Shown here: piece by piece, positions 12,377-50,797 of the stretch
Numbering within the stretch: the first letter of the stretch is position 1
Layout: each line of letters opens with the position of its first letter
The notes under the pieces: generated by a model
The model's database searches: none
The model's input: only the letters and a program-made list of their open reading frames with translations
What the model was told of the DNA's origin: nothing
Position numbers and translations under genes: made by a program
Virus record (IMG/VR): IMGVR_UViG_3300045988_134824
Coordinates: 72,744 to 136,743 of that record
DNA length: 64,000 nt
Origin: a virus
Strand: one strand, 5' to 3'

Positions 12377-13741
12377 GTGGAATTAATTATGAATCTAAAC
12401 GAAATGGAAATCCCTTGCGATCCAATTTTGGATAAAGCAAAGAGGGATGAGTTAGTGCAGAACACAGAACTTTTAAAACAGGTTACAATCAAGCCGATCC
12501 CGTGGCTTCCTGGACGAGATTATATCACTACAGAACAGGTAGCACGATTCTTTGACGGGGATGTTGATGAAGTCAAGAGGTTGTGTACGAAGTATCGTAA
12601 AGAGTTTTTAGCAGATGGAATGGAAGTTAAGACAGTGCAGGAGATCATTGATGGTCAGAACGCAACAGCGGAAAAACAGAAGGGAAGAATCATGGTAACG
12701 TATCCGAACGGATTGAATATCTCATTCGGTTACAAGGGTGCTAAGGTGTTTACTCTTAAATGCTTGATCAGATTGTCTTTACTAATGGAAACTTCAAAAC
12801 TTGCCGAGAGCGTGAGGTATTATGTTTTCATTAATGATTATATCACGATAGAAGAGCAGAGAGAACAAGAGCAGGTAGAGGCAGGTGTGCAGCTTGTAGA
12901 CACAACGGAAATTTTAGGTAGAAGAATTGACTTATACAGAAGCATTGAAGATCCGTTATTCTTGGCAAGAGATGTTGCAGAATGGATTGATTATAGTAAA
13001 CGTCCTGATGGAAGTTATAAAACAGATATGATGTTACAGGTGATTGATTCAGAGGAAAAATATAAGACCAAAATCTTAACCGCCAATAATGTTGGCGGGT
13101 CAAATTTAGGTCAGATTGATTCTACGGGAAAGACTATTAATCCATTTTGGTTTCTGACAGAAGATGGACTCTATGAAGTGTGTATGCAGTCACGCAAGCC
13201 GATTGCAAAACAGATGAAGAAACAGATCAAAGAATACCTTAGAAACATCCGTAAGACAGGCGGTGCAGTTGACTTTGGAAAAGAATCACAGTTTATTGAA
13301 CACTATTTTCCATCATTCTCTGAAGATGTCAAGCTTGCAATGGTAACGGATCTGAGAACACAAAACAAGGAACTCAAAGAAGAAAATCAGAAGCTACAGA
13401 ATGATAATAAGCTATTAGCAGCGGAAATTTTGACGTGGGATGATCGCAATAAGATGAACGCTGGTATTAGGAAATTAGCTGCGGTTACAGGAACACAGTT
13501 CTCTGTTATGTGGAACGAGCTGTATAAGAACTTACAGTATAAATATCAGATTGATGTTAAGAAACGTGGCAAGAAACCATTTCTACAGTGGATTCAAGAA
13601 CATGAATGGGATAAGGTACTGAAAGTCTTTTGTGCAATGTGTGAAGCTAGAAACCTATCTCCAACAGATATGTTCCAACAGACGGCACCTGTGGAAAATT
13701 TATATGATAATGAAGATGAGGATGATGAAGTATGGAATTAG
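12377..13741 (+). CDS. Bro-N domain phage antirepressor-family protein
   Basis: FLARDVAEWIDYS...FLTEDGLYEVCMQSRKPIAKQMKKQI matches Bro-N signature; 454 aa. Confidence 0.55.
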   Translation: MELIMNLNEMEIPCDPILDKAKRDELVQNTELLKQVTIKPIPWLPGRDYITTEQVARFFDGDVDEVKRLCTKYRKEFLADGMEVKTVQEIIDGQNATAEKQKGRIMVTYPNGLNISFGYKGAKVFTLKCLIRLSLLMETSKLAESVRYYVFINDYITIEEQREQEQVEAGVQLVDTTEILGRRIDLYRSIEDPLFLARDVAEWIDYSKRPDGSYKTDMMLQVIDSEEKYKTKILTANNVGGSNLGQIDSTGKTINPFWFLTEDGLYEVCMQSRKPIAKQMKKQIKEYLRNIRKTGGAVDFGKESQFIEHYFPSFSEDVKLAMVTDLRTQNKELKEENQKLQNDNKLLAAEILTWDDRNKMNAGIRKLAAVTGTQFSVMWNELYKNLQYKYQIDVKKRGKKPFLQWIQEHEWDKVLKVFCAMCEARNLSPTDMFQQTAPVENLYDNEDEDDEVWN

Positions 13742-14299: not shown

Positions 14300-15394
14300 A
14301 TGAACCTACAGTTAGTAAAAACGGAAAATTTTAATGATATAGCGTGTGATTTTTATAGTGCCGAGGACGATATTTGGATGACAAGAAAGCAGATCGGAGA
14401 GGCACTGGAATATGGAGATCCACAGAAAGCAATTGATAATTTGCACAATAGATATAGAGATAGACTGGATAAATATTCAGTTACCCTCAAACTGGGGGCT
14501 ACTGATAACAAGAAGTATGACACTACACTCTATAATGAACGTGGCGTGATGGAAATTTGTAGATGGAGCAGACAGCCAAAGGCAAACGCCTTCATGGATT
14601 GGGTTTGGGACGTGATTTCCTCTTATCGTCATGGAAATTTAAGAACAGGAACTCCCGTAACAACAGTGGAGCAATTTCTTACAGAACAGACAGAACTTAT
14701 GAGGCAGATGGAAAGAAACAATGAACGCCTATACAATGTTACTATCAAAGGTTTCAATCAGTTGGCAGACATTGTAAAAGAGATGAAAGCCGAACGGAAA
14801 GAATTATATAAGCAGATCGGTAAACCTACGAAAGATATTCCAGTAGTAGATATTGAAAGTGTTATTGCAGAATACAAACTTAACGAATGGAAATCCAACG
14901 TATATTCTATCATTAATGATATTCTAAAAGAATCTGACGAACTAGGAACCACTACTAGAGATATTCTTAGAGAGGCATACAGGTATCTTACTAACACATA
15001 TGGGATTGTGTGGGAACAGGATCGAAAAGAATACAAAGAGAAGTATAATATTGGAGAAAGAGGTAATGTCCCAACAATTGACCTTTGCTATGATAAATAC
15101 CCTGATCTGCTAGTTAATTCATTGGAAAAACTTCTGCGACAGTTCAGAAAAGAAAATGCACAGCCTGATTGGGAAGAAATGAAGATCAAGATTACCAATT
15201 ATGCTAATCATATTGGAAATAAGTCTAAAGGTGGAACGTCTGTTTATCGGAAAATCTACACTAAGATGACAGAGAATGGAGTTAACTGGGATGAATATGC
15301 TCATGGGTTGTCTAAATCTCAGCTTATTAAAACTAATGCAACTTTGTACAACAGATTTTACGAAGCAGCGGTGGAAATTATTTCAGAAGAATAG
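14300..15394 (+). CDS. Bro-N domain phage antirepressor-family protein (second paralog)
   Basis: N-terminal FNDIACDFYSAEDDIWMTRKQIGEALEYGDPQKAI...YNERGVMEICRWSRQPKANAFMDWVWDVI is a classic Bro-N pattern. Confidence 0.6.
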   Translation: MNLQLVKTENFNDIACDFYSAEDDIWMTRKQIGEALEYGDPQKAIDNLHNRYRDRLDKYSVTLKLGATDNKKYDTTLYNERGVMEICRWSRQPKANAFMDWVWDVISSYRHGNLRTGTPVTTVEQFLTEQTELMRQMERNNERLYNVTIKGFNQLADIVKEMKAERKELYKQIGKPTKDIPVVDIESVIAEYKLNEWKSNVYSIINDILKESDELGTTTRDILREAYRYLTNTYGIVWEQDRKEYKEKYNIGERGNVPTIDLCYDKYPDLLVNSLEKLLRQFRKENAQPDWEEMKIKITNYANHIGNKSKGGTSVYRKIYTKMTENGVNWDEYAHGLSKSQLIKTNATLYNRFYEAAVEIISEE

Positions 15395-24719: not shown

Positions 24720-25544
24720 ATGACAGAAGAAAAGAATGGTGTAAATGAAGCATTGAATACGTTAGTGTTTAATAATGATGAGTTTGGAAATATCCGCACA
24801 GTGATTTTAGATAATAATCCGTGGTTTGTAGGGAAAGACGTAGCCAGTTGCCTTGGGTATGTAGATACGGTAAATGCATTAAAGAAACATATTGATGCCG
24901 AAGATAAGCGATTATTTCTAAGGTGTCAAATCGCCACCTTAGAAAATGTACCAAACAGAGGACTTACATTTATTAATGAATCTGGTCTATATGCTTTAAT
25001 TTTTGGAAGCAAGCTTGATAGTGCGAAAGAATTTAAACATTGGGTAACATCCGAAGTTCTTCCACAGATCCGTAAGACAGGTGGTTATATCCCAATTGAT
25101 AAAGAAGATGATGATTTAACTATCATGGCGAAAGCATTGAATATTATGCAAAACACTTTGGTACAAAAGGATGAACTATTAGCCCAGAAAGAAGAAGTTA
25201 TCAATCAGCAGAAACCACTTGTTGATTTTGCCAATACAGTCAGTGCCACAGAAACAATGGTTGACATGAAAACAATGGCAAAGCTTCTTGAGAAAGAAAA
25301 TCAAGATATTCATATGGGCAGAAACAAATTATTTGCGTGGTTAAGAAAAGAAGGGTATCTCATGTCAGATAATACCCCATATGAAAGATATGTTAAGCAG
25401 GGCATTTTCAAATTAACAGAAAGTGAAGTTGAAACTAAGAATGGAAACAAGTTGATCACCAAAACATATGTGACTGGCAAAGGGCAATTATACTTGGCAA
25501 AGAAATTAGCACAATACTTTGCCTCACAGAGTGCATCAGCTTAG
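24720..25544 (+). CDS. phage antirepressor, Bro-N N-terminal domain plus KilA-C (ANT) C-terminal domain
   Basis: N: NPWFVGKDVASCLGY...NESGLYALIFGSKLDSAKEFKHWVTSEVLPQIRKTG. C: TMAKLL...GRNKLFAWLRKEGYLM...VTGKGQLYLAKKL. Confidence 0.65.
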   Translation: MTEEKNGVNEALNTLVFNNDEFGNIRTVILDNNPWFVGKDVASCLGYVDTVNALKKHIDAEDKRLFLRCQIATLENVPNRGLTFINESGLYALIFGSKLDSAKEFKHWVTSEVLPQIRKTGGYIPIDKEDDDLTIMAKALNIMQNTLVQKDELLAQKEEVINQQKPLVDFANTVSATETMVDMKTMAKLLEKENQDIHMGRNKLFAWLRKEGYLMSDNTPYERYVKQGIFKLTESEVETKNGNKLITKTYVTGKGQLYLAKKLAQYFASQSASA

Positions 25545-37760: not shown

Positions 37761-39368
37761 ATGGCAGCTAAGGATAACACAATGGTAATTACTAGAAAGA
37801 TTGCTTTGATTCCTGTCGTAAGTGAGCGAAAAGAATGGAAGAAAAGAATTAATGCTTTCTTAGAAAAAGATTTTCCAAGGAAAATTGAAGCAAAGAAGAA
37901 GCAGATTAAGAATACAAGCAAGCCAGAAAATAAAGATGGGTACAAGCTGCAACTCGCAGAATTAGAAAAACAATACGAAGATTTTAAAGAAAATAGAATC
38001 GAAGAATATACTCAGAAAATGGTTAACGATTATACATATGGTCTTGTGAGAGATGCAATGGAGAGTGAAGCAAGACGAAAGAATTACATTTTGTCTTACA
38101 TATACACAAAAATGGTACAGGATGGAGTTGGATATATGCCAACATTGAAAGATAAATATACATGGATTAAAGAAAATATTAATGTCGCATATAGACGAAA
38201 AGGAAGTAATAAAGGGAGTATCTTTGATGACGTTGACATTGATAATCCATTAGGTGGATACGGAACATGCTTCTCTCAGATATTAACAAGTAAGATCAAA
38301 GATTTGGTTAAGCAGGGATTGTTAGACGGCAAAGTGTCAATTCCAAGTTTTAAAATTGACTCGCCATTTACAATTGCAAAAGCATATTTTGATCTATATC
38401 ACGAATACGAAGATATAGCAGAATTAAAGAAACGTATTTATGATTCAGATTGCAAACTGTATTGTGGATTAGGTAACAAAGGTATTCCGACCATTGCAAA
38501 TTTCAAAGTAAATATCGGACACAAAGGAAATAGAGACGAGTTAATTTCTACATTGTTAAGAATATTTACTGGAGAATACGAGATTTGTGGAAGTACAATG
38601 CAGATTTCTAAAACAAAAATTATTTTAAATTTATCAATTAGAATTCCTAAAACACAGCTTGAATTAGACGAGGACACTGTAGTTGGTGTCGATCTTGGGG
38701 TTGCAATTCCAGCGGTATGTTCTTTGAATAATAACAAATATAAGAGAGAGTATATTGGTAGTAGTGACGATTTTATTAGAATGAGAACGAAATTACAGCA
38801 CGAGAAACAGCAGTTACAGAAAGCATTAAAGATGTCAAAAGGTGGACATGGAAGAAAAAGAAAGTTGTTGGCATTAGAAAGATGTAAAAAGAAAGAACAT
38901 AACTTTGTTGAAACATACTGCCACAAAGTAAGCAAGAAAGTAGTTGATTTTGCGGTCAAGAATAAAGCGAAATATATCAATGTAGAAAATCTTTCGGGAT
39001 ATGATTCAAGTAAATTCATTTTAAGAAATTGGAGTTTTTACAAACTTCAGCAATACATAGAATATAAAGCTGCGAAATATGGTATTGAAGTTAGAAAAAT
39101 AAATCCATCATTCACATCTCAGGTATGTAGTTTCTGTGGACATTGGGAAGATGGGCAGAGGAAAGATCAAGCAACATTTGTTTGTGGTAATCCTAATTGT
39201 GAAAGCCATAAATTACATATGGTAAATGCAGACTATAATGCATCAAGAAATATTGCAATGTCAACATTATTTACGAGCGATAAATTCCAATTTTGTAAAA
39301 AGACGATGCAAAATGCGGCGGAGTATTACGGTATCCAACTAGATAATGAAGATCAATTAGCAGCGTAA
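37761..39368 (+). CDS. TnpB-like / Cas12-like (type V) RuvC nuclease, 535 aa
   Basis: RuvC-I VGVDLGVAIPAVCS (D ~38691). RuvC-II KYINVENLSG (E ~38984). Zn finger CSFCGH..CGNPNC. RuvC-III HMVNADYNASRNIA (D ~39231). Immediately followed by CRISPR-like arrays. Confidence 0.85.
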   Translation: MAAKDNTMVITRKIALIPVVSERKEWKKRINAFLEKDFPRKIEAKKKQIKNTSKPENKDGYKLQLAELEKQYEDFKENRIEEYTQKMVNDYTYGLVRDAMESEARRKNYILSYIYTKMVQDGVGYMPTLKDKYTWIKENINVAYRRKGSNKGSIFDDVDIDNPLGGYGTCFSQILTSKIKDLVKQGLLDGKVSIPSFKIDSPFTIAKAYFDLYHEYEDIAELKKRIYDSDCKLYCGLGNKGIPTIANFKVNIGHKGNRDELISTLLRIFTGEYEICGSTMQISKTKIILNLSIRIPKTQLELDEDTVVGVDLGVAIPAVCSLNNNKYKREYIGSSDDFIRMRTKLQHEKQQLQKALKMSKGGHGRKRKLLALERCKKKEHNFVETYCHKVSKKVVDFAVKNKAKYINVENLSGYDSSKFILRNWSFYKLQQYIEYKAAKYGIEVRKINPSFTSQVCSFCGHWEDGQRKDQATFVCGNPNCESHKLHMVNADYNASRNIAMSTLFTSDKFQFCKKTMQNAAEYYGIQLDNEDQLAA

Positions 39369-39530
39369 ATTATATGAAAATATATGGCATGTTTTGGAGG
39401 GAGTTCGATGCTCCCTCAGCCATAAAATAATATGACTATGCCAAGAGAGAGGAAAAAAATTCACTCACTAAAATTTGTGTAATTGAGCAAAACATAAAGT
39501 TTTGTATTACATACATAATTAAGATTTGAG
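39369..39530 (+). ncRNA. conserved unit U1 (leader / tracrRNA- or omega-RNA-like candidate) preceding array A; contains strong hairpin 39384-39424
   Basis: shares ordered blocks tatggcatgttttg(g)ag .. atgaYtatgccaaRag .. actcactaaaa .. atttgag with U2 and U3; ttgtgtaatt is complementary to repeat segment aattacaca. Confidence 0.4.
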
Positions 39531-39632
39531 GTTTGAGAACTATTGAAAATTACACAGATACAAAACATCCAGATAAATATTTTATTGACGTTGTCAGTTT
39601 GAGAACTATTGAAAATTACATAAAATGTATGG
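39531..39632 (+). CRISPR. mini-array A: 36-nt repeat gtttgagaactattgaaaattacacagatacaaaac (39531-39566), 30-nt spacer (39567-39596), distal repeat degenerate after nt 25 (39597-39632)
   Basis: read directly. Confidence 0.7.
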
Positions 39633-39770
39633 CATGTTTTGAGAAATTTTATATCCAATGTAAATTTTCTGATCATAAGAAATATGATTATGCCAAAAGT
39701 GAGATTTAAAAATAATACTCACTAAAACCTATGTGATAAAGTATCAAAATTGGACAAAGATGAAATTGAG
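39633..39770 (+). ncRNA. conserved unit U2 preceding array B
   Basis: contains stem AGTGAGA-tttaaaaataa-TACTCACT; segments acctatgt and gtatcaaa are complementary to the B repeat variant (acataggt, tttgatac). Confidence 0.4.
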
Positions 39771-39938
39771 GTTTGATACCTATTAAAAATTACATAGGTA
39801 CAAAACATGTTTTGATCTTCAGCACCTGATACAAAGTTTGATACCTATTAAAAATTACATAGGTACAAAACACAATCGGCATCCGATCTTTTCGCTGCCT
39901 GAGTTTGATACCTATTAAAAATTACACAAAGTGTGTGG
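39771..39938 (+). CRISPR. mini-array B: repeat gtttgatacctattaaaaattacataggtacaaaac x2 (39771-39806, 39836-39871), spacers 29 nt (39807-39835) and 31 nt (39872-39902), third repeat degenerate after nt 24 (39903-39938)
   Basis: read directly. Confidence 0.7.
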
Positions 39939-40037
39939 TGTGTTCTGGAGATTTTATCTCGTCTATCAAATAGGTAGATACGCCAAAAGTGAGACATGAA
40001 TGTACTCACTAAAATCTATGTTAGTTGAATATTTGAG
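39939..40037 (+). ncRNA. conserved unit U3 preceding array C
   Basis: stem AGTGAGA-catgaatg-TACTCACT has the same stem as U2 with a different loop; ends ..atttgag like U1/U2. Confidence 0.35.
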
Positions 40038-40139
40038 GTTTAAGACCTATCAAATTTAACACAGGTACAGAACTCTGACGTGCTTCATTTTATTCGATCG
40101 TGCGTAAAAGACCTATCAAATTTAACAAAATCAAAAGGA
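40038..40139 (+). CRISPR. mini-array C: repeat gtttaagacctatcaaatttaacacaggtacagaac (40038-40073), 30-nt spacer (40074-40103), degenerate terminal repeat gtaaaagacctatcaaatttaacaaaatc.. (40104-40139)
   Basis: read directly. Confidence 0.6.
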
Positions 40140-40152
40140 AATTAAACGAAAA

Positions 40153-40320
40153 ATGAAATCAAGACAGCAACGTGAACAGGAAATAAAACGATTCTTTGAT
40201 CGGCTGAGTCCCAGTGAATTGGACAGGCTGTTAGAAAGAAATGGAATTAATGATAAAGAGTCTGATGAGGCTCTTGCATATAGAATTATTAAAGAAGAAA
40301 TTGAGAAAGGAGAGATATAA
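40153..40320 (+). CDS. small charged protein (55 aa), not in ORF track
   Basis: ATG 40153; MKSRQQREQEIKRFFDRLSPSELDRLLERNGINDKESDEALAYRIIKEEIEKGEI. Confidence 0.3.
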   Translation: MKSRQQREQEIKRFFDRLSPSELDRLLERNGINDKESDEALAYRIIKEEIEKGEI

Positions 40321-40625
40321 TGAACAACTTCTTATATATTGAATCACGGGAAGAAGAGAATACATCCCTCGATTCTAAACGTGTTTTATTGAATGAAGAA
40401 AATTACAAACATATTATTTCATCATTAGATCATTATCCACCGACGGCAGACGAAGTTAAGAAAGCAATTTGTATTTTGACTGGACGATTGATCTACAGAA
40501 GCGTTTGGAATATGGAATCTGATATTGATAGTTTAAATATGAGTTTATCACCGCCAAAAGAAATGACGGTTGCAGAAATTGAAAAGGAACTTGGTTATAA
40601 AGTTAAGATTGTAAAGGAGAAATAA
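40320..40625 (+). CDS. hypothetical protein (101 aa)
   Basis: ORF with RBS. Confidence 0.45.
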   Translation: MNNFLYIESREEENTSLDSKRVLLNEENYKHIISSLDHYPPTADEVKKAICILTGRLIYRSVWNMESDIDSLNMSLSPPKEMTVAEIEKELGYKVKIVKEK

Positions 40626-40936
40626 TGCCAATGGCAAAAAAGAAACAAGGAATGTCGTTTGAAATGATGATGCAAAATATGGAAATTAATCCAAGGCAAT
40701 TGTATCGTCGTAGTTCGTGGAAGAAGACACGAACAACTTATGATTATGTGTTTATGATGTGCGAAGAAGAATTAAATGAGATTATTCCATTTGATAAAAA
40801 ATATAAAATGAAACCACTCTTATGTAGAGACCAAAATGGAGTTATAACATTGGGATGGTTGCCTACACAAGAGGATATTTTCGCAAATGATTGGGTTGAG
40901 CAAGGATGGGATTTTAACAGTAAAAGGAAGAGGTGA
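40625..40936 (+). CDS. hypothetical protein (103 aa)
   Basis: ORF. Confidence 0.45.
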   Translation: MPMAKKKQGMSFEMMMQNMEINPRQLYRRSSWKKTRTTYDYVFMMCEEELNEIIPFDKKYKMKPLLCRDQNGVITLGWLPTQEDIFANDWVEQGWDFNSKRKR

Positions 40937-40944
40937 ATAATTAA

Positions 40945-41244
40945 TTGAATTTTATAAAAGCAATGATCGCAATAAAAAAAGACAAAACTACTATAAGAAG
41001 AGGCATTTGGGGAAAGGAAAAGTATTTGAAAATTTATTCGTCAGAATTAACTAATGTTTATTTTGAGTGTAATGATATGGGTGAATATAAGCCAGATTCA
41101 ATTATTTTTTTATTTGATAAAGAAAACGCAGAAGTTTGGATACCTCTTGCGGAAGATGTATATGCAGATGACTGGGAAATATATGTTGAATCGGTTAAAA
41201 AGCCAAATCAATCAAAAGCAAAGGTGAAGGAGAAAGAAGAATGA
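40945..41244 (+). CDS. hypothetical protein (99 aa)
   Basis: ORF. Confidence 0.4.
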   Translation: MNFIKAMIAIKKDKTTIRRGIWGKEKYLKIYSSELTNVYFECNDMGEYKPDSIIFLFDKENAEVWIPLAEDVYADDWEIYVESVKKPNQSKAKVKEKEE

Positions 41245-41654
41245 AAGTGTTTTTAGGCGGAACATGCTCTGGATGGAAGTGGAGAGACCAGCTACAGAAG
41301 ATGTTGGATTGTGATTATTATAATCCAATCGTAAAAAATTGGAGTGAAGAAGACCGACTGCGGGAAGTCAAGGAAAGAGAAGAATCTGACTATGTTCTGT
41401 ATGGCATTACGAATGGTATTAAAGGAGTATACAGTATTGCAGAAGTAGTTGATGATTCTCATAAGCGACCAGATAAAGTGATCTTTCTTAATCTCTATCA
41501 GGAACAAAAGAATAAAGAATCTAAGCAGATGAGCCACAGTTTAAAAGCAGTCGAAAATTTATTGAAAGAAAATCGTATTAAAGTATATTCTGGCGTACAT
41601 GCTATGCAGGATGTTGCAGATTTTCTTAACTTAATGAATAAACGAAAGGGGTAA
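41241..41654 (+). CDS. nucleoside 2-deoxyribosyltransferase-like protein (paralog 1)
   Basis: MKVFLGGTCSGWKWRDQL N-terminal pattern and overall similarity to 45890 ORF. Confidence 0.4.
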   Translation: MKVFLGGTCSGWKWRDQLQKMLDCDYYNPIVKNWSEEDRLREVKEREESDYVLYGITNGIKGVYSIAEVVDDSHKRPDKVIFLNLYQEQKNKESKQMSHSLKAVENLLKENRIKVYSGVHAMQDVADFLNLMNKRKG

Positions 41655-41660
41655 AGAAGA

Positions 41661-42614
41661 ATGAAATGTTTTTATCATGTTGATCAGGACGGCATCGTAT
41701 CTGGTTTCTATGTCAGAAAAGCTTGCGAACAGCGAGGTTTAGAGTTTAAACCAGAAGACTTCCGAAAAATTAATTACGGCATGAAATTCCCGTTTCATGA
41801 CATTGAGCAGGATGAATTTGTGTTTATTGTAGACTACAGTATTGAGCCAGAAGAGATGTGGCAGTTGCTCAGTATTACAAAGAATGTATTTTGGATCGAC
41901 CATCATCAGTCTACGATTGAAGCGTATAAAGATTTCAAGTGTGATGTAAAAGGAATCAGAATTACTGGAGCGGGTATTTCAGGAGCGAATTTGACATGGT
42001 TATATTTTAAATATATGTGTGATGAAAATTGGGAGCAAATTGAGAGGACGGATGAGAAAAATGTAAAAAGATTACTCAATATATATAAATATAAAGCAGA
42101 TTATCCAAAACTGGCAGAATATACAGCCATGTGGGATACATTTTATTTTGGTGAAACGTCAAAACAATTCGTAAAAGCATTTCACTATGCATTTGAATCG
42201 TATGATTTTGATGCGTTAAGTCCATTGCTAAACACGTTAAATAAAGATCAAGGAATTTATGAAGCAGCAAAAATTATTGGTGATATGATAGCAGATGGCT
42301 TATCAATTATTGAGTATTTAGCAGCAAATGCAGAACAATATCTTAGAGCATATGGTTTTGAAACCATATTTGAGGGACATAAAGTCTATGCAATCAACCG
42401 AGCATTAATCAATTATGATTTCTTTGAATCTATTGATGCTTCTAAATATGATATGTTCATTGGTTTTTCGTTCAATGGAAGTATGTGGGAATATCAGTTG
42501 CGATCCGCAGAACAGGATAAAGTAAATGTGTATGAGCTTGCTGTGAAATATGGTGGCGGTGGTCATCCAAATGCAGCTGGGTTCAGAAGTGATAAGTATG
42601 TGTTAGGAGTGTGA
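41661..42614 (+). CDS. DHH-DHHA1 phosphoesterase (NrnA-like nanoRNase / pAp phosphatase family)
   Basis: motif I HVDQDGIVS, motif III WIDHHQS, DHHA1 GGGGHPNAAGF. Confidence 0.7.
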   Translation: MKCFYHVDQDGIVSGFYVRKACEQRGLEFKPEDFRKINYGMKFPFHDIEQDEFVFIVDYSIEPEEMWQLLSITKNVFWIDHHQSTIEAYKDFKCDVKGIRITGAGISGANLTWLYFKYMCDENWEQIERTDEKNVKRLLNIYKYKADYPKLAEYTAMWDTFYFGETSKQFVKAFHYAFESYDFDALSPLLNTLNKDQGIYEAAKIIGDMIADGLSIIEYLAANAEQYLRAYGFETIFEGHKVYAINRALINYDFFESIDASKYDMFIGFSFNGSMWEYQLRSAEQDKVNVYELAVKYGGGGHPNAAGFRSDKYVLGV

Positions 42615-42617
42615 TGT

Positions 42618-43403
42618 ATGTCAAGGAAAAATACAAGAGAATTTGAACTTGCTTTTAGTAAAAATAGAGACCCAGATTGGGAAGCCGATGTAGAGATTTA
42701 TGGAAAAAGGGTTTTAAAAACAGTACGTGGTATTTGTCTTGGTGATGAATGGACAGAAATTAATTCATTGAGAAACAAGGATCATATTGAGTTAGCGGAG
42801 ATGTTTTGTAATTTTGACGATCATAATCCACATTTTAATCTGAGCCCTCAATATGTTTTATTGGATAAGTTTTCTATAACATCTCCTGCGATATTGTGTA
42901 GTGATGAAATAGTTATGAAAAATGGCAAAGTTTTGAATGTTGATAATATATCAGCAAATCTATCAGGCAAAAATGAAGTATACAAGATTTATTCAAATAC
43001 AAAATATGATGATTATACATATTATGATGAATCAGAAAATTTAGTATTTGAATTAGCATCAAAAGATGTTGATAAGATAATCCGATTTATGAGAGATTTT
43101 ATGGATGAATTACGTGATGCTAAATTAACAAAGTATAGAAATAGTAATTTTTTATGGAGACTATTTAACACTCTTGATATGCCACATTTTAAACAAACAT
43201 ATTCCATGAATGATTTGAAAAAATATACAAACACATTTAGATCTGAGGTTTGTGGTCAACTAAAAGAAACTATTCCTAATTTTAAATATACTGGAGTTCC
43301 AATGGGCGGGTATATTGAAAGATATTTTGAATTAAGTTATGTAGAGGAAGTACAAAAATTCATTAAAGAACAGGAGGCAAAGAGATGTGAAGAAACTAAA
43401 TGA
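42618..43403 (+). CDS. hypothetical protein (261 aa)
   Basis: ORF. Confidence 0.45.
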   Translation: MSRKNTREFELAFSKNRDPDWEADVEIYGKRVLKTVRGICLGDEWTEINSLRNKDHIELAEMFCNFDDHNPHFNLSPQYVLLDKFSITSPAILCSDEIVMKNGKVLNVDNISANLSGKNEVYKIYSNTKYDDYTYYDESENLVFELASKDVDKIIRFMRDFMDELRDAKLTKYRNSNFLWRLFNTLDMPHFKQTYSMNDLKKYTNTFRSEVCGQLKETIPNFKYTGVPMGGYIERYFELSYVEEVQKFIKEQEAKRCEETK

Positions 43404-43920
43404 TGAACAGCGAAGGCTGATTGAAGATAATTACTCTTTGATTTGGCATTTACATGAAAAATATTTTACAAAGTTTACAGATTTTGATACATATATGGAT
43501 CTTGGTCGTATGGCAATTTGTAAAGCAGCATTAAAATGGGACGAGTCTAAAGGAACTTTTGGTACATATCTCTTCTTGGTATTACGTTCAGAAGTGAATC
43601 AATATTATACAAAATGGCACAGACTAACAGAAAAAATGAATAGGAATGCTGAATCGTTAGATACACCATTGGCAGGATACGAACCAGAAGATGATATTAC
43701 AATCGGAACAACACTGATGAGTAAAGATAATGTAGAGGATGAGGTGCTTACAAAGGTACATTTTCAAAATGAGTTTGATAAATTGGCACCGAGAAATAAA
43801 AAGATTATCACGTTAAAGCAGAAAGGTTTAACACAAAGACAAATTGCAAGTCAGCTTGGAATCACTCATCAGTGGGTTAGTCAAAATATTGTACAGTTTA
43901 AGAAAGCATTATGTGGATAA
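43387..43920 (+). CDS. sigma-70 family RNA polymerase sigma factor (regions 2 and 4)
   Basis: GTYLFLVLRSEVNQYY region-2-like; C-terminal LTQRQIASQLGITHQWVSQNIVQFKKAL region-4 HTH. Confidence 0.65.
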   Translation: MKKLNDEQRRLIEDNYSLIWHLHEKYFTKFTDFDTYMDLGRMAICKAALKWDESKGTFGTYLFLVLRSEVNQYYTKWHRLTEKMNRNAESLDTPLAGYEPEDDITIGTTLMSKDNVEDEVLTKVHFQNEFDKLAPRNKKIITLKQKGLTQRQIASQLGITHQWVSQNIVQFKKALCG

Positions 43921-43933
43921 AAGAGGTGAGATC

Positions 43934-44764
43934 ATGACAATTGAAGAAGTAAAAGATTACATAAACTCGTCTCCAGAGTATGACTTTTTACGAGATTATC
44001 CTCACAAAATCGCTTTTCTCACGCTAGGTGGAAGTTATGCCTACGGAACAAATACAGAGGATTCTGATATTGATTTACGTGGTGTTTTCCTTAGTGATAA
44101 AAGAGAGATTTTGTTGAATAATAGTATGAAATTAGTAGACACAAGGAAAGATACCGATACTACAATGTATGCATTGAAGAAATATGTTGGTCTATGCGCT
44201 AAAGGAAATCCTACGGCATTAGAGTTGTTGTATAATCGTCCAGAATGCTATTTATATGTATCCGATATTGGTATGGAGTTGATTAAAAATCGAGACATGT
44301 TTTTATCAAAGAAAATTTGGTATGCATTTAACGGATATTCACAGGCTTTAGAAGAACAAACAATCAGATTGTATGACGAAACTATCTTAACAGAAGATCA
44401 GATTAATTTAGCAAAGAAGAAGGTTTGTAAGGCGATGATGCATGTAATTAGAGTAATACACAATGGAACAGCGTTATTGAAAACATCTACAATGCAAACT
44501 TACAACTTCGAGCTTCTCAGGCAAAGTTTATTATTACTGAGAGACGGAGCTTATTGTAGTAGTATGGTGATCAAAGGAAGAGCGACTGATGATATAATCA
44601 AACGATTTGTTCCATCTAATGATTTTGGGGAGCTATTTGATTGCTTTTATCAAGCTTTTGAAAACGCATTTAAAACTACAACTTTACCAGATGAACCAGA
44701 CTGGGATCGTATTAATGATTTTCTGGCAACAACAAATGAACGAATTGTGAGAGGAATGGTGTAA
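43934..44764 (+). CDS. Pol-beta-superfamily nucleotidyltransferase (track ORF starts 43844; ATG 43934 preferred)
   Basis: GGSYAYGTNTEDSDIDLRGVF = G-S-x9-D-x-D nucleotidyltransferase active-site motif. Confidence 0.55.
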   Translation: MTIEEVKDYINSSPEYDFLRDYPHKIAFLTLGGSYAYGTNTEDSDIDLRGVFLSDKREILLNNSMKLVDTRKDTDTTMYALKKYVGLCAKGNPTALELLYNRPECYLYVSDIGMELIKNRDMFLSKKIWYAFNGYSQALEEQTIRLYDETILTEDQINLAKKKVCKAMMHVIRVIHNGTALLKTSTMQTYNFELLRQSLLLLRDGAYCSSMVIKGRATDDIIKRFVPSNDFGELFDCFYQAFENAFKTTTLPDEPDWDRINDFLATTNERIVRGMV

Positions 44765-44766
44765 AA

Positions 44767-45036
44767 ATGTATGTAAAGATTGGAGACGAAATTGCTTTTC
44801 ATCCTGGCGAATGCTTAGAAGAATTTGTTGAATCTTGCAGGATGACTCCTTATCAGCTTGCGAGTAAAATTGGCATAGATGTTGATTATGTGCAAGGGCT
44901 GATTGACGGATTACAAAGTGTTACAAAAGAATTTGCGAAAACAATGGCAGACCATTATGGGTTTGCTGATGATGGTCAGTTCTGGTTAAATTTGCAAGAA
45001 ACATTTGATAAGAAAGTAGATGATAGAGATGTTTGA
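44767..45036 (+). CDS. HigA-like XRE-HTH protein (antitoxin-like)
   Basis: HPGECLEEFVESCRMTPYQLASKIGIDVDYVQGLIDGLQSVTKEFAKTMADHYGFADDGQFWLNLQETFD matches HigA antidote family pattern. Confidence 0.55.
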   Translation: MYVKIGDEIAFHPGECLEEFVESCRMTPYQLASKIGIDVDYVQGLIDGLQSVTKEFAKTMADHYGFADDGQFWLNLQETFDKKVDDRDV

Positions 45037-45562
45037 ATTAATAAAACAACCACGTTCTGATAACGATAAATGTACTAAATATGATGTTGTGCTTGATAAA
45101 GATTATACTGTAGAAGAATTTATTGATGCGATTGCAGATGGAAGAAATGGAACGCATGGTCAAATCACAATAAAAAATGATAAAGAAGCCATTGAATCAT
45201 TTGTCTATAATATCGAGAGTATTGATTATAGACATTGTAAACTTCAAAATGCTGAAGAAAAAATTAAACAAGTATGGGCAGATGGTAGCTGGTTAAAAAT
45301 TAATTATACTATCTTACTTGAAAACAAACAGGAAACACAAAAAGGTGCGCTCAGATTTATTGTTAAGAAGCCAAATGGGGAAGAATCAGTGGTGGTTATT
45401 TTTAAGAACAAATCCGATGGCACATATTCATTTGTTAATTTGACAAAAGAGCATATTTGTTCATGTAAATTTAAAACAATTGAGGAAGCCATTCAGGATA
45501 TGAATGATCGCTTAAGAAAAGGATTGATTGAGTCCTATATTGTGAAAGGAGAAAGAAAATAA
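45020..45562 (+). CDS. hypothetical protein (180 aa)
   Basis: ORF. Confidence 0.45.
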   Translation: MIEMFELIKQPRSDNDKCTKYDVVLDKDYTVEEFIDAIADGRNGTHGQITIKNDKEAIESFVYNIESIDYRHCKLQNAEEKIKQVWADGSWLKINYTILLENKQETQKGALRFIVKKPNGEESVVVIFKNKSDGTYSFVNLTKEHICSCKFKTIEEAIQDMNDRLRKGLIESYIVKGERK

Positions 45563-45900
45563 TGGATATACATATTGGAGATTTTTGGCAGAACAAATGT
45601 AATCCAAAAGTAATTCAACATGTAGTTAATTTTTCATTTAGAATGGGTGGATTTCCAAGTAGTAAAGATATGCTACTGATCTGTGAAGAATTTCATTATA
45701 CAAAGATAGGTGAGGATTCTGCCTCTGTTAAAGAAGATTCCAGATTCTTCACACATATTACAGTGGATAATTTTAAAAAGATGAATCAATGTATTCTAAG
45801 TGCTGAGAGGATTATGAAAGATACTCAGGCATTTAAAACAGATAAAGATATTTTGGATTATTTAACAAAGAAAGTGGAGGAGAAATTAAATGCAAAATAA
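45562..45900 (+). CDS. hypothetical protein (112 aa)
   Basis: ORF. Confidence 0.4.
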   Translation: MDIHIGDFWQNKCNPKVIQHVVNFSFRMGGFPSSKDMLLICEEFHYTKIGEDSASVKEDSRFFTHITVDNFKKMNQCILSAERIMKDTQAFKTDKDILDYLTKKVEEKLNAK

Positions 45901-46363
45901 TGTATTTCAGATTTATCTTGCAGGCGGTATGCAGGATTTATCATTTGAAGAGCAGAATACTTGGAGAGAAAGAATTTGCAATCAAATTATTGCTATGCGT
46001 AGAATACTTAATGTTAATATGAAAGAAGTCAACATTATTAACCCCGTTGATTATTACAATTTTCAAACAGAGTTACATGATACAGAAAAAGAAGTAATGA
46101 GATTTGATACAAATTTTGTTAGAAATAGTGATCTTGTTGTGGTAAATGCGAATGATCCGAAGAGCATTGGTACATCTATGGAGATTGCAATTGCATATGA
46201 ACGTCATATTCCTGTACTGATTTTGAATACAGAAAAGAAAAGATTGCATGCTTGGTGGGTGCAAATGTCTGACAAGATATTTGACGATGAGAAAAAATTA
46301 TGTACATATATATATGACTTTTATCTCAGGATGAATCATAGTAGTATTCGAGCATGGGTGTAA
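45890..46363 (+). CDS. nucleoside 2-deoxyribosyltransferase-like protein (paralog 2)
   Basis: IYLAGG..QNTWRE...VVVNANDPKSIGTSMEIAIAYERHIPVLIL matches Nuc_deoxyrib_tr family core. Confidence 0.55.
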   Translation: MQNNVFQIYLAGGMQDLSFEEQNTWRERICNQIIAMRRILNVNMKEVNIINPVDYYNFQTELHDTEKEVMRFDTNFVRNSDLVVVNANDPKSIGTSMEIAIAYERHIPVLILNTEKKRLHAWWVQMSDKIFDDEKKLCTYIYDFYLRMNHSSIRAWV

Positions 46364-46524
46364 ATGCAATGATATAAAATAGGAATTTGAGGCAAAATGA
46401 AAGGAGTTGAATCACTATCACGGCAGAGAAACAAGGCAAGTTTATTATTTTCCATCTGGATGATGGTAAAACTTGTAAATATGATTTATCAAATGGTGAT
46501 TGCTATGGCAAAAGTGGTAAGAAA

Positions 46525-47559
46525 GTGAAAGCTTTAAATAATATTCTGTCTGGGCATTCGGCTGATGAATTGGATAAATTATTTGTGTCCGATCCACATT
46601 ATGCAGAGTTTTTAAAATATGTAAACTGGCGAAAAAATTGTGAAATGGGAAGAACTACATGGGGCTTCATTGATTATAATTTAGGAACATTGTTTAAATA
46701 TGCAAGTAAATATTCGGTATGTGAACAGTTCTTTGCTATAGGATTTACACATAAACAAGTCACAGAAGATTTTAAATATTCAATCAATGAAGTACCAAAA
46801 TGGTTAAGAAATTATTGTCTTGGTGTGAAGAATAGACGATTGTTAAGTAATGATTTTGTTGATTTTTATAAGATGTATCCAGATTATGTACAAAAGATTT
46901 TACAGACAGAGTATATGACATTAACTAAAGAATATTTAATAAATTTCTTCGAGGATAATCATAGATATCGTTTTACGAAAATTTTGGAGGCTTTAAATCA
47001 GGATTATGGCTATAATCTTGCAGATGTGTTTGTTTATATAGATAGAATAATTACATTTGAAGCTGCTACCAATAGTATAAATTGGTTACTCGGAGAATTG
47101 CGTGATTATGCCCGTATGATGGACACAATCAGTCATAAATTTGATAGATATCCAAGACATTTCAAAACAACAATGGATATTGTCACAAGAAATTACAAAA
47201 GATTGCAAAAAGAATTTTCGGAAGAAGTCTTTAAGAACCGTATTAACAAAGAATACGAATTTACATATAAAGGACTGAGATTCTTTTATCCAGATTCTAC
47301 TCAAGACATTAAAGACGAAGCGGTGCAGCAAAATAATTGTGTGGCAAGTTACATAGATCGAGTCATTGATGGCGAATGCCATATTATGTTCTTGAGAAGA
47401 GTAAAAGAACCAAACAAATCGTTAGTGACGATTGAAATACAAAATGGACGAATCGTACAAGCACTGCAAAGATTCAATGATCCTCTAACTGCCGATCAAC
47501 AAGAAGCGGTTGATGCATGGAATAAACATTTTAGTAAGAAAGGTAAGGTGGCAGCATGA
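46525..47559 (+). CDS. PcfJ-like domain protein; N-terminus may extend upstream (in-frame ..AEKQGKFIIFHLDDGKTCKYDLSNGDCYGKSGKK lacks ATG; possible frameshift near 46397-46420)
   Basis: C-terminal NNCVASYIDRVIDGECHIMFLRRVKEPNKSLVTIEIQNGRIVQALQRFN resembles PcfJ signature. Confidence 0.5.
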   Translation: MKALNNILSGHSADELDKLFVSDPHYAEFLKYVNWRKNCEMGRTTWGFIDYNLGTLFKYASKYSVCEQFFAIGFTHKQVTEDFKYSINEVPKWLRNYCLGVKNRRLLSNDFVDFYKMYPDYVQKILQTEYMTLTKEYLINFFEDNHRYRFTKILEALNQDYGYNLADVFVYIDRIITFEAATNSINWLLGELRDYARMMDTISHKFDRYPRHFKTTMDIVTRNYKRLQKEFSEEVFKNRINKEYEFTYKGLRFFYPDSTQDIKDEAVQQNNCVASYIDRVIDGECHIMFLRRVKEPNKSLVTIEIQNGRIVQALQRFNDPLTADQQEAVDAWNKHFSKKGKVAA

Positions 47560-48095
47560 TTAATATTAATGAATTGACAACAGATCATAAGATTAAATTA
47601 AAGAAACCAATGGGATGCTTCGATAATCTTGGCGAGGTATGTGAGATTGTTAAGATTGATACAGATGAAAATGTTATTAATTTTAGATTTGGTGTAGATG
47701 GAGTACATCTTGGCGTGATGTCAGGAGATGAATTGGAAAAATATTTTGATGTTATTGAACCAACTGTTATTCCTGATGATTATGAGTGGCATCCATATGG
47801 TTTTATTGAAGATAATCAGGTTATGTATCATGCTCTTAAGAATGGTAGTATTTCGATGGAGACTACATATGATGGAGATGGAACAATTTCTGTTGTGTAT
47901 GAGCACCCTGAAAATCCTTATCGGCAAATTAAAAATGGGCAAAGAGGTAGGTTTTATTGTGAAGATTTGAAAGTAGCATTTTTTAAATTAAAGAAAACAT
48001 ACTATGACAAATTATATGAAGATATACAAGAAGAAGTCATGTTGGATTTTGTTAAAAATAAAGACAAATTAGAGCCAGTTGAAGTCAATGAATAG
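47556..48095 (+). CDS. hypothetical protein (179 aa)
   Basis: ORF. Confidence 0.45.
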   Translation: MININELTTDHKIKLKKPMGCFDNLGEVCEIVKIDTDENVINFRFGVDGVHLGVMSGDELEKYFDVIEPTVIPDDYEWHPYGFIEDNQVMYHALKNGSISMETTYDGDGTISVVYEHPENPYRQIKNGQRGRFYCEDLKVAFFKLKKTYYDKLYEDIQEEVMLDFVKNKDKLEPVEVNE

Positions 48096-50257: not shown

Positions 50258-50797
50258 ATGTCGTTGAAATTAAATGACGAACAGAGAAAATTAGTAGAAC
50301 AAAATCATAATTTGATTTACTCTGCTATGACAAAATGCGGTATCCGCAGACAAGATTTTGATGACTATTATGGATTCGCTGCTATTGGGTTGTGTAAGGC
50401 AACAATTGATTATGATGAATCCAAAGCTAAATCATTCTCTACATATGCATATAAATGTATGCAAAAAGAAATTATAGCATATACTCGATGGAGATTTGCA
50501 GATAAAAGAGATGAACGACTTACCTTATCGTACAATCAGTTAATGAATGATTTAGATGAAGACGAAAAAGAATATTCTTTTTTGTTAGCTGATAAAAAAA
50601 ATAATGAAAAAAAATTAATTTTCTTTTTGTGTTTTGATGAGCAAATGCGAATACTAAATAATAAGGACAGGTTAATTATTAATTTAAAGGCAAAAGGGTA
50701 TACGAACGAAGAAATAGGAAATACCCTTGGTGTTACATATCAAGCAATTCAATATCAATTGAAAAAAATTAAAAATAAATTAATCCCATCCTTATAA
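50258..50797 (+). CDS. sigma-70 family sigma factor (second paralog)
   Basis: N-terminus LNDEQRKLVEQNHNLIY parallels 43387 ORF (LNDEQRRLIEDNYSLIW); C-terminal GYTNEEIGNTLGVTYQAIQYQLKKI HTH. Confidence 0.6.
   Translation: MSLKLNDEQRKLVEQNHNLIYSAMTKCGIRRQDFDDYYGFAAIGLCKATIDYDESKAKSFSTYAYKCMQKEIIAYTRWRFADKRDERLTLSYNQLMNDLDEDEKEYSFLLADKKNNEKKLIFFLCFDEQMRILNNKDRLIINLKAKGYTNEEIGNTLGVTYQAIQYQLKKIKNKLIPSL

Follow-up and report, generated by a model that had tools for sequence, protein, structure and literature searches.

The 64,000-nucleotide stretch of viral DNA analysed here (IMG/VR record IMGVR_UViG_3300045988_134824, positions 72,744 to 136,743; referred to as the window) represents 64 kb of a genome of about 160 kb, and statements on genes missing from it apply to the scanned part of these 64 kb. 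It carries two open reading frames (ORFs) for proteins related to nucleoside 2-deoxyribosyltransferases (NDTs), ORF A (41241-41654) and ORF B (45890-46363), which a sequence-only reading of the DNA had described as paralogues flanking a block with a DHH phosphoesterase and a nucleotidyltransferase. Comparison with related loci indicated that the block is a run of independent cassettes and not one pathway. From folds, motifs, gene contexts, domain fusions and the presence or absence of genes in relatives we infer the substrates and biological roles proposed below, and we assign a probability of about 0.5 to the following picture taken as a whole: independent cassettes, in which ORF B encodes an enzyme of 2'-deoxynucleoside 5'-monophosphates (dNMPs), ORF A a counter-defence enzyme linked to NAD and ADP-ribose (ADPR), the DHH gene an NrnA/NrnB-like protein and the nucleotidyltransferase gene an RNA repair enzyme of the RlaP family.

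Independent assortment of the genes

The window proteins were mapped onto 165 loci, which are designated by L-numbers. The backbone order of the block is 55-aa gene, 101-aa gene, slot, DHH gene, 261-aa gene, sigma factor gene, RlaP gene, helix-turn-helix (HTH) gene, 180-aa gene, 112-aa gene (missing in part of the relatives), ORF B and PcfJ gene, where the slot is the position between the 101-aa gene and the DHH gene. Slot contents were counted in 47 distinct contigs, which had been picked through ORF B and are hence unbiased for ORF A; 44 of them were evaluable.

Tad2-like pair only: 13/47 contigs
Tad2-like pair and ORF A: 9/47 contigs, and 1 more with ORF A frameshifted in an A6 run
64%-identity allele of ORF A only: 8/47 contigs
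ORF A only: 4/47 contigs
A different, 209-aa gene: 4/47 contigs
Nothing: 5/47 contigs
Not evaluable: 3/47 contigs

The Tad2-like genes a and b were present together in 23 of the 44 evaluable relatives and are gained or lost as a pair, independently of ORF A; the pair and ORF A were observed together 9 times, and about 11 co-occurrences would be expected if they were independent. ORF A was missing in about half of the otherwise syntenic relatives. ORF B was present in every ORF A-anchored family locus whose contig reaches its position, and the DHH gene was missing from just one of these loci; because they are kept in this way, both are treated as backbone genes. A close homologue of the DHH gene (at least 79% identity) was found in all family contigs spanning the gene with a single exception (L012/L113). 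Two allele classes were distinguished among relatives both for RlaP (about 52% and 88-99% identity) and for the sigma factor (about 62% and 91-99% identity), and the most allelic position of the block was that of the 261-aa gene, where the relatives carry alleles of about 100, 94, 49 or 33% identity or in which no homologue was found.

The layout described by the sequence-only reading stands, but its functional block does not: the 4.2 kb between ORFs A and B also encode a sigma factor, an HTH protein and three unassigned proteins. Likewise, the view that the concentration of nucleotide-metabolising enzymes forms one functional unit is not supported, as ORF A, the Tad2-like pair, the 261-aa gene and the RlaP and sigma factor alleles assort independently among relatives. 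Because of this mosaic of slot contents and alleles, the bracketing by A and B is regarded as layout. A single operon-like functional module was rejected because of the pattern of presence and absence together with the allele mosaic.

The genes of the block, all on the + strand, are listed below.

40625..40936, +: Tad2-like gene a, 103 aa; PF11195 34.2 bits, cut-off 25; optional cassette in the slot upstream of the DHH gene
40945..41244, +: Tad2-like gene b, 99 aa; PF11195 45.3 bits, cut-off 25
41241..41654, +: ORF A, 137 aa; NDT/TIR-like ('DrHyd'-type) fold, accessory
41661..42614, +: stand-alone DHH-DHHA1 phosphoesterase, 317 aa; NrnA/NrnB/TmPDE-like; backbone gene
42618..43403, +: 261-aa protein without family; highly allelic position
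43387..43920, +: phage sigma-70-family factor, 177 aa; Sigma70_r4 25.4 bits (above the cut-off), r2 18.9 bits; phrog_351 1.5e-24
43931..44764, +: RlaP-family Pol-beta nucleotidyltransferase, 277 aa from the ATG at 43931
44767..45036, +: small HTH protein, antitoxin/HigA-like, 89 aa; phrog_1381 4e-11; HTH_31 22 bits, below the cut-off
45020..45562, +: 180-aa protein; sub-threshold Pfam and PHROG matches only
45562..45900, +: 112-aa protein; no family match; missing in part of the relatives
45890..46363, +: ORF B, 157 aa; core NDT-family enzyme

The gaps between genes across 40153-46363 range from -17 to +10 nt, and the stop of Tad2-like gene b overlaps the start of ORF A by 4 nt (gap -4). The block is an accessory region of tightly packed, co-directional genes upstream of the replication genes; the replication module downstream consists of a helicase-like and a primase-like gene (both below the Pfam cut-offs) followed by RecJ and DnaE. 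Scans of the region for promoters and terminators gave no enrichment over shuffled sequence, and Rfam returned no structured RNA or riboswitch there.

In L109, ORF A carries a 1-nt deletion in the A6 run at about 5790 (equivalent to window positions 41332-41337), which shifts the frame; the deletion reflects either the decay of a gene that is dispensable or a mistake in the assembly. The 209-aa protein found in the slot of L093 (5070-5699), L103, L104 and L127 has a Pol-beta-like 'GG..R....DiD' motif and no match in Pfam or the PDB. A homologue is encoded directly 3' of the ORF A homologue in the unrelated phage L034 (10416-11123).

Relationship between ORFs A and B

Both ORFs are real and lie on the + strand, with the previously described motifs VFLGG at aa 3 of A and IYLAGG at aa 8 and GTSMEIAIAYERHIPVLIL at aa 94 of B. 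The assignment of both to the NDT superfamily was also right: B has the fold, and A has the fold and the acidic nucleophile. The term paralogous did not survive. BLASTP comparison of A with B gave E=11, and hhalign with the first alignments aligned just the N-terminal FLGG...WR stretch (probability 5.8%). With broad alignments (98 and 95 sequences) hhalign found a similarity over 118 columns (E=3e-4, probability 39%, 19% identity), which pairs F4, E42 and E68 of A with Y9, D73 and E98 of B. The iterated family hidden Markov models (HMMs) of A and B had no matches in common. A recent duplication was rejected in view of the BLASTP value and the 5.8% probability, and what remains is a remote superfamily link; A and B are distant members of one superfamily with separate histories.

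ORF B as a predicted dNMP enzyme

The ORF B protein matched PF05014 over residues 8-119 with 32.1 bits (cut-off 28.8), and the five-stranded alpha/beta fold of NDTs was confirmed. The catalytic triad is present as Y9, D73 and the nucleophile E98. Conservation in the ORF B family (95 sequences, 32-99% identity) is high at these and several other positions: Y9 is found in 94 sequences, P52 and E68 in 95 each, D73 in 89 (with Glu in 5 more), S92 in 95, G94 in 94, T95 in 86, E98 and H120 in 95 each and W122 in 94. HMM alignment with 7m5h pairs D73 with Asp, E98 with Glu, P52 with Pro and S92 with the Asp of 'DAGVASE'.

In Lactobacillus NDT the Asp that binds the 5'-OH lies six residues before the nucleophile (D92/E98 in LlNDT), whereas rat Rcl/DNPH1, a 2'-deoxynucleoside 5'-phosphate N-hydrolase, has a phosphate-binding Ser six residues before its nucleophile (S87/E93). 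ORF B departs from the classical nucleoside NDTs (PF05014; Lactobacillus NDT/PDT, 7m5h, 7o62, 6evs) in having an invariant Ser92 (95/95) in place of this Asp, and agrees with DNPH1/Rcl in having a small uncharged residue there (S92/E98). The invariant Ser92 argues against free deoxynucleosides as substrates. The NDT-superfamily fold and the Tyr/Asp/Glu triad are further features shared with DNPH1/Rcl; HMMER detected no sequence similarity of B to Rcl, and P52 of B is a Pro of the water-excluding type of transferases, which the DNPH1/Rcl hydrolases lack.

It has been reported in the study on DmtZ, a dAMP hydrolase/phosphodeoxyribosyltransferase of Z phages, that NDTs use Asp or Asn at the 5' pocket and hydrolases small uncharged residues, and that a Pro after strand 2 is a mark of transferases (PMC12884076). 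P52, which is invariant in the ORF B family and pairs with the Pro of 7m5h, is such a transferase trait. Compared by description only, B is like DmtZ in the triad, in P52, in W122 near the active-site lid and in lacking an Asp in the 5' pocket. Thus, B appears to combine a phosphate-type pocket with transferase traits, as DmtZ does. It is also phage-encoded, and its relatives also sit with nucleotide-metabolism genes. Unlike for DmtZ, no PurZ, DutZ or other gene of the Z pathway was seen in the scanned proteins. For the Pfam scans, 20 of the larger ORFs of the window were taken in addition to the block and its flanks; in this set, from 64 of about 160 kb, neither of the gene types expected of a link to PurZ0 and DutZ (adenylosuccinate-synthetase-like, Dut-like) was present, and neither was among the dereplicated genes that lie within three positions of a relative of B in another phage.

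Outside the phage group, a guanylate-kinase-like gene lies at most three genes from the B relative in 21 of 33 loci, in 19 of them directly upstream, and NrdD, ATP-cone, NrdG, ThyX and FolD are frequent neighbours. These neighbours fit an enzyme acting at the dNMP level. Isolated phages contain weak relatives of B only.

Taken together, B is a predicted dNMP N-glycosidase or phosphodeoxyribosyltransferase that shapes the deoxynucleotide pool. It would cleave the N-glycosidic bond of dNMPs, either hydrolysing it or transferring deoxyribose-5-phosphate to another base, and would edit the dNMP pool upstream of nucleoside monophosphate (NMP) kinase. The nucleotide-pool manipulation that the sequence-only reading had considered for the block is in this way retained for B, on account of its triad, its DNPH1/DmtZ-like 5'-phosphate pocket and the guanylate-kinase-like, NrdD, NrdG and ThyX neighbours of its relatives; A is assigned elsewhere. 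If the prediction is true, B belongs to a second lineage, unrelated to the recently described DmtZ type, of dNMP-specific glycosidases or transferases, and NDT-fold enzymes edit the dNMP pool also in phages other than those with Z genomes.

ORF A: family, fold and conserved residues

The signature of ORF A is F4, W14-R15, N28-P29, E42, G62..S65..E68 and D71-D72. The protein scored 28 bits against PF15891 (Nuc_deoxyri_tr2; cut-off 30), with residues 2-66 only; other members of the family reach 31-51 bits, and many close homologues have PF15891 among their precomputed annotations. The close homologues form 630 clusters at 90% identity, and the 120 listed share 70-99% identity with the query. When 1.84 billion cluster representatives were searched with a profile, 1319 sequences were returned at E<=1e-3 and 852 at E<=1e-10; the family comprises over 850 clusters at 50% identity. 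Among isolated phages it occurs in the C. difficile phage phiCD418 (48%), in Lak megaphages (about 40%) and in jumbo phages such as Psa21. In 139 representatives mutually less than 50% identical, F4, G6-G7-T8, W14-R15, P29, E42, Y54, G62, E68 and D72 are near-invariant (F4 in 133, E42 in 138 and E68 in 137 of the 139), a pattern which points to a precise active or binding site.

Both features of the NDT/DrHyd superfamily, the fold and an acidic nucleophile in the helix after strand 3, were found in A. The triad Tyr on strand 1 was not: its place is taken by Phe4, which pairs with Y9 of B. A Phe at the Tyr position is also found in MilB, an enzyme of cytidine monophosphate (CMP), and is compatible with a substrate that bears a 2'-OH. 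A differs from the CMP N-glycosidases MilB and BlsM in that it has no match to them at the sequence level, has Glu (E42) and not Asp at the second triad position, and occurs in an accessory region of a phage, in contrast to antibiotic biosynthesis. No match of A to TIR profiles was obtained. The fold search of BFVD returned only viral proteins that are unnamed or generically named NDT-like. The literature searched on PF15891 yielded nothing specific, and no functional study of YtoQ was found in it.

The TIR-DrHyd-SLOG class consists of enzymes that hydrolyse or transglycosylate the N-glycosidic bonds of nucleotides, its inactive members being nucleotide sensors; the DrHyd domains of conflict systems have been predicted to be effectors of NADase type, and in a survey of 2022 only ARC-type DrHyd domains were found in viruses (PMC9503650). 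A shares with the DrHyd and TIR-linked domains the five-stranded Rossmannoid fold and the conservation of residues that follow strand 1 or lie in the helix behind strand 3, and multi-TIR proteins start with the same domain (about 45% identity, same signature). The A family of phages is a stand-alone one, and A has Phe in place of the triad Tyr; it may be an NADase, a signal glycosidase, a transferase or a binder.

ORF A: fusions and neighbourhoods

Fourteen of the 150 top representatives of the A family consist of the A domain followed by 1-5 TIR domains, and F4, E42 and E68 are all kept in each of these 14 copies. The A-TIR fusions that were scanned against Pfam usually also carry WD40, LRR, TPR or FGE-sulfatase regions, and one A-TIR cluster includes proteins from metagenome-assembled genomes of Bacteroidales. 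Two other representatives, apparently in phiKZ-like phages, are fused to phiKZ-type internal head proteins, and single representatives combine A with a preceding NUDIX domain or with a preceding Rv2179c-like exoribonuclease.

In L041 (6703-11114) a homologue of A is part of a cluster of abutting or overlapping genes in the order Macro, isochorismatase/PncA-like, Prs-like, Nampt, A, NadE. Its Nampt matched 9w5x (E 1e-123) and its Prs-like protein matched phosphoribosyl pyrophosphate synthetases (E 8e-19); the pair is either Adps/Namat, as in NARP1, or ordinary Prs/NadV. No nicotinamide mononucleotide adenylyltransferase was recognised in the cluster. An NAD-dependent ligase gene lies directly downstream of A in L002-L005, and a PncA-like gene 1.7 kb upstream of A in L021-L028. 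At 7-10 kb upstream of A, close relatives of the window phage have a cassette of either PncA-Prs-Nampt or Nampt-NadE-Macro (L033 1833-4740; L007, L013, L018), which suggests that NAD counter-defence genes accumulate in this region. These cassettes of near-identical relatives lie at a place where the window contains other genes, and none of the cassette genes occurs in the window. The PncA-like/Prs-like/Nampt and Nampt-NadE-Macro cassettes of the relatives resemble the NARP-type genes for rebuilding NAD+.

Elsewhere, relatives of A are found near genes for ribonucleotide reductase (RNR), ThyX, NT5C, NrdD, dUTPase, DNA methylases, RNA ligase, Thg1 and family-B DNA polymerase. The A gene adjoins a DHH gene in three lineages, namely this phage group, L038-L040 and L061/L067 (in the last case beside family-B DNA polymerase). 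Coupling of A to DHH as a rule was rejected, because adjacency is limited to these lineages and no DHH gene lies within 10 kb of A in more than 50 of the 66 outgroup loci. In L021 (13553-15786) the surroundings of the A homologue include genes for an AAA_33 kinase-HD fusion, for a HAD_SAK_2 ('Swiss Army Knife' RNA repair) protein and for a DHH protein; these genes, together with the Thg1 and RNA ligase neighbours elsewhere, suggest a recurrent RNA-repair neighbourhood for the A family.

Proposed role of ORF A

Tad2 sponges sequester signals made by TIR proteins, and reconstitution of NAD is an established counter-defence of phages, in which NARP1, NARP2 and NARP3 rebuild NAD+. RyDEP, according to its authors the first enzyme found to cleave 2'/3' cyclic ADPR (2'/3'cADPR), feeds NAD+ synthesis (PMC13232231). 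The fold of A is related neither to that of Tad2 nor to that of RyR-domain proteins such as RyDEP; A shares a slot with Tad2-like genes, it is found in L041 inside the Macro-PncA-Prs-Nampt-NadE cluster, and it would have, as RyDEP has, a glycosidase-type chemistry on a ribosyl linkage.

On these grounds A is viewed as an optional NAD/ADPR-linked counter-defence enzyme, a predicted N-glycosidase or transglycosidase. It would cleave or transfer the ribosyl linkage of an NAD- or ADPR-type nucleotide and, alongside the neighbouring Tad2-like sponges, would counter TIR/NAD-based immunity. Glu68 may act as the nucleophile that accepts the ribosyl group of 2'/3'cADPR-type signals, or A may transfer ADP-ribosyl onto nicotinamide or nicotinate. 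If Thoeris-like signalling were silenced and the rebuilding of NAD+ were fed at the same time, this would explain the place of A between Nampt and NadE in L041. In bacterial multi-TIR proteins the N-terminal A domain would carry out the same chemistry on the side of the host, and the copies fused to internal head proteins would enter the cell together with the injected DNA. The full form of this proposal, in which the A family constitutes a new class of NDT/DrHyd-fold enzymes that counter TIR/NAD immunity, with Glu68 as nucleophile and with ADPR-signal cleavage or ADP-ribosyl transfer as its reaction, is speculative, and we regard it as less likely than not.

The depletion of a signalling nucleotide, mentioned in the sequence-only reading for the block, is accordingly kept for A, in view of the slot with Tad2-like genes, the TIR fusions elsewhere and the NAD cluster of L041. 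These associations of the A family (Tad2 slot, TIR, head-protein and NUDIX fusions, NAD cluster) are the more interesting result, and they make up a concrete, testable hypothesis. If it is true, a widespread family annotated 'NDT-like, function unknown' is a candidate anti-Thoeris or anti-NADase factor whose fold is unlike those of Tad1, Tad2 and RyDEP, and there is a direct link between a counter-defence of phages and a domain of effector type in bacterial multi-TIR proteins. The natural series of slots, with A only, the Tad2 pair only, both or neither, offers ready-made isogenic comparisons.

The DHH and RlaP proteins

The DHH-DHHA1 assignment was upheld by the motifs DxD (aa 8-10), D58, DHH (aa 80-82) and GGGH (aa 299-302), and by a match to phrog_4771 (1.2e-34). 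The protein is like NrnA, NrnB and TmPDE in size (317 aa) and in the DHH and GGGH motifs, but stays below both Pfam cut-offs (DHH 20.7 bits, DHHA1 21.5 bits), and its PDB matches to TmPDE, NrnA and PggH are weak. Homologues are named 'oligoribonuclease NrnB/cAMP/cGMP phosphodiesterase' by JGI. It is probably an NrnA/NrnB-like phosphodiesterase of short oligonucleotides or dinucleotides. Phage DHH phosphodiesterases have been predicted to counter the cyclic nucleotide signals of SMODS and CRISPR systems (PMC7824862); the literature searched on phage DHH enzymes yielded nothing specific.

The Pol-beta-type nucleotidyltransferase was correctly recognised and belongs to the RlaP family: it matched PF10127 with 76.5 bits (cut-off 23) over profile positions 14-247 of 249, and phrog_388 with 3e-42. 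Characterised RlaP enzymes add 1-2 NMPs to damaged 3' ends of RNA (PMC12776372). The family match makes it a putative RNA-end repair enzyme and not an enzyme of the nucleotide pool. Known RlaP genes usually accompany ligase genes; no RNA ligase was recognised among the genes of 40153-47559, three of whose proteins are without family. The 261-aa gene, whose product had no match in Pfam, PHROG, NCBIfam, PADLOC or the PDB, sits where an RNA-repair partner of RlaP might be expected.

Evaluation of alternative explanations

Several observations weigh against the roles proposed for A and B. The fold match of A is barely better than matches to generic Rossmann-like folds, the mapping of its residues comes from one profile alignment of 39% probability, and a sequence search of the PDB gave no match. 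A does not co-vary with the Tad2-like genes, L041 is the only lineage in which it lies within an NAD cluster, and most of its contexts outside the phage group are ordinary DNA- and RNA-metabolism genes with no single dominant partner. Its adjacency to the DHH gene in three lineages could mean plain nucleotide recycling. Moreover, the TIR-fused copies of A would be host effectors, and the chemistry of the phage copies need not be 'anti-defence'. As to B, its best PDB sequence match had E=0.0034, and S117 of Rcl, the second phosphate-binding Ser, is not reliably alignable in B, which has the invariant H120 nearby, perhaps in its place. PDB sequence links are almost lacking for A, B, the DHH protein, the 261-aa protein and the 209-aa slot protein alike; PADLOC gave noise-level matches only, with no meaningful match for the two NDT-fold proteins or the DHH protein, and NCBIfam gave nothing beyond weak matches to RecJ/NrnA and MntA.

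Recycling, with A working together with the DHH protein, is the main rival, and we hold it to be possible, at odds of perhaps one to three. From oligonucleotides of the host the nanoRNase-like DHH protein would make (deoxy)nucleoside monophosphates on which A (ribo) and B (deoxy) would then act, releasing bases and (deoxy)ribose-5-phosphate or swapping bases and so rebalancing the pools for an AT-rich genome, with A as a housekeeping enzyme. The adjacency of A to the DHH-DHHA1 gene in three separate lineages, the ThyX, NT5C, NrdD, RNR, dUTPase and ligase genes near A relatives, the guanylate-kinase-like, NrdD and ThyX genes beside B relatives, and the 33% G+C content of the window are consistent with this scheme. 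It is difficult to reconcile with the fact that A is dispensable in half of the near-identical relatives, in which B and DHH are kept, with the slot that A has in common with Tad2-like sponge genes, or with the more than 50 of 66 outgroup A loci that have no DHH gene within 10 kb (see above). The TIR, head-protein and NUDIX fusions and the position of A in the Macro-PncA-Prs-Nampt-NadE cluster would also be unexpected for bulk recycling.

Two further schemes would unite the block under a single function. An anti-signalling battery, in which the DHH protein degrades the cyclic immune signals of CBASS or type III CRISPR systems and A and B bind or destroy messengers, appears unlikely. It would draw on the predicted activity of phage DHH phosphodiesterases against SMODS and CRISPR signals (PMC7824862), on the non-catalytic nucleotide sensors of the TIR-DrHyd-SLOG class (PMC9503650), on the adjacent Tad2-like sponges and on the mosaic nature of the region, which resembles anti-defence islands. 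B and DHH, though, are core genes with conserved catalytic residues, B relatives occur in contexts of deoxynucleoside triphosphate (dNTP) synthesis, the closest solved relatives of the DHH protein are (by weak matches) enzymes of linear dinucleotides and nanoRNA, and PADLOC matched neither A, B nor the DHH protein meaningfully. The leading idea of the sequence-only reading, a common pathway of A, B, the phosphoesterase and the nucleotidyltransferase in which a non-canonical base is made or brought into the DNA by base exchange or hypermodification, is very improbable. Phage enzymes of the NDT family do take part in such pathways, as DmtZ makes dZMP from dAMP and the Z base and an NDT associated with dZ phages prefers dA, and B has the DmtZ-like traits (triad, Pro52, Trp122, no Asp in the 5' pocket). 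Against it, no PurZ, DatZ, DpdA, thymidylate-synthase-like or glycosyltransferase gene appeared in the Pfam scans (the block and 20 larger ORFs; 64 of about 160 kb visible), the conserved context held no modification genes either, and A and B do not co-vary. Besides, A, as well as the 261-aa gene and the RlaP alleles, varies among relatives independently of B, the RlaP enzymes have RNA ends as their substrates, and the relatives of B lie in ordinary dNTP-synthesis neighbourhoods.

The phage group and other features of the window

The window is AT-rich (about 33% G+C) with a strongly positive GC skew, and almost all of its long ORFs lie on the + strand. Dozens of viral contigs of about 160 kb in IMG/VR contain the same block, and close protein homologues come from assemblies of Lachnospiraceae, Anaerostipes, Romboutsia and Faecalibacillus; because of these contigs and homologues, the source of the window is regarded as a large phage or phage-plasmid of gut Bacillota. 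At the DNA level, a query with 41000-47600 (6.6 kb) found among isolated phages a relative of the PcfJ gene only, in phiCD211-like phages of C. difficile (65% identity). The PcfJ-like protein is encoded at 46525-47559 (PF14284, 70 bits).

A second sigma-70-family factor, about 33% identical to that of the block as judged from cross-hits in relatives, is encoded at 50258-50797, and the window also encodes a tyrosine recombinase. The accessory region upstream contains a gene for an SPFH/flotillin-like protein (31286-32746; Band_7 85 bits, Flot 29 bits) and three genes for BRO-N proteins (12377-13741, 14300-15394 and 24720-25544), antirepressors of which one has a KilAC/ANT domain.

A TnpB/Cas12f-like protein of 535 aa is encoded within 37761-40130 (PF07282 69 bits, PF01385 32 bits). 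Three tandem units of about 250-290 nt each follow 3' of its gene, and each of them contains two direct repeats of about 36-43 nt that are 65-66 nt apart (GTTTGAGAACTATTGAAAATTACA...) and a common upstream box. The units, for which an Rfam search gave no match, look like three one-spacer mini-CRISPR arrays or reiterated guide modules. The TnpB/Cas12f-like gene is present in only some of the relatives, as alleles of 97% or 62-70% identity.

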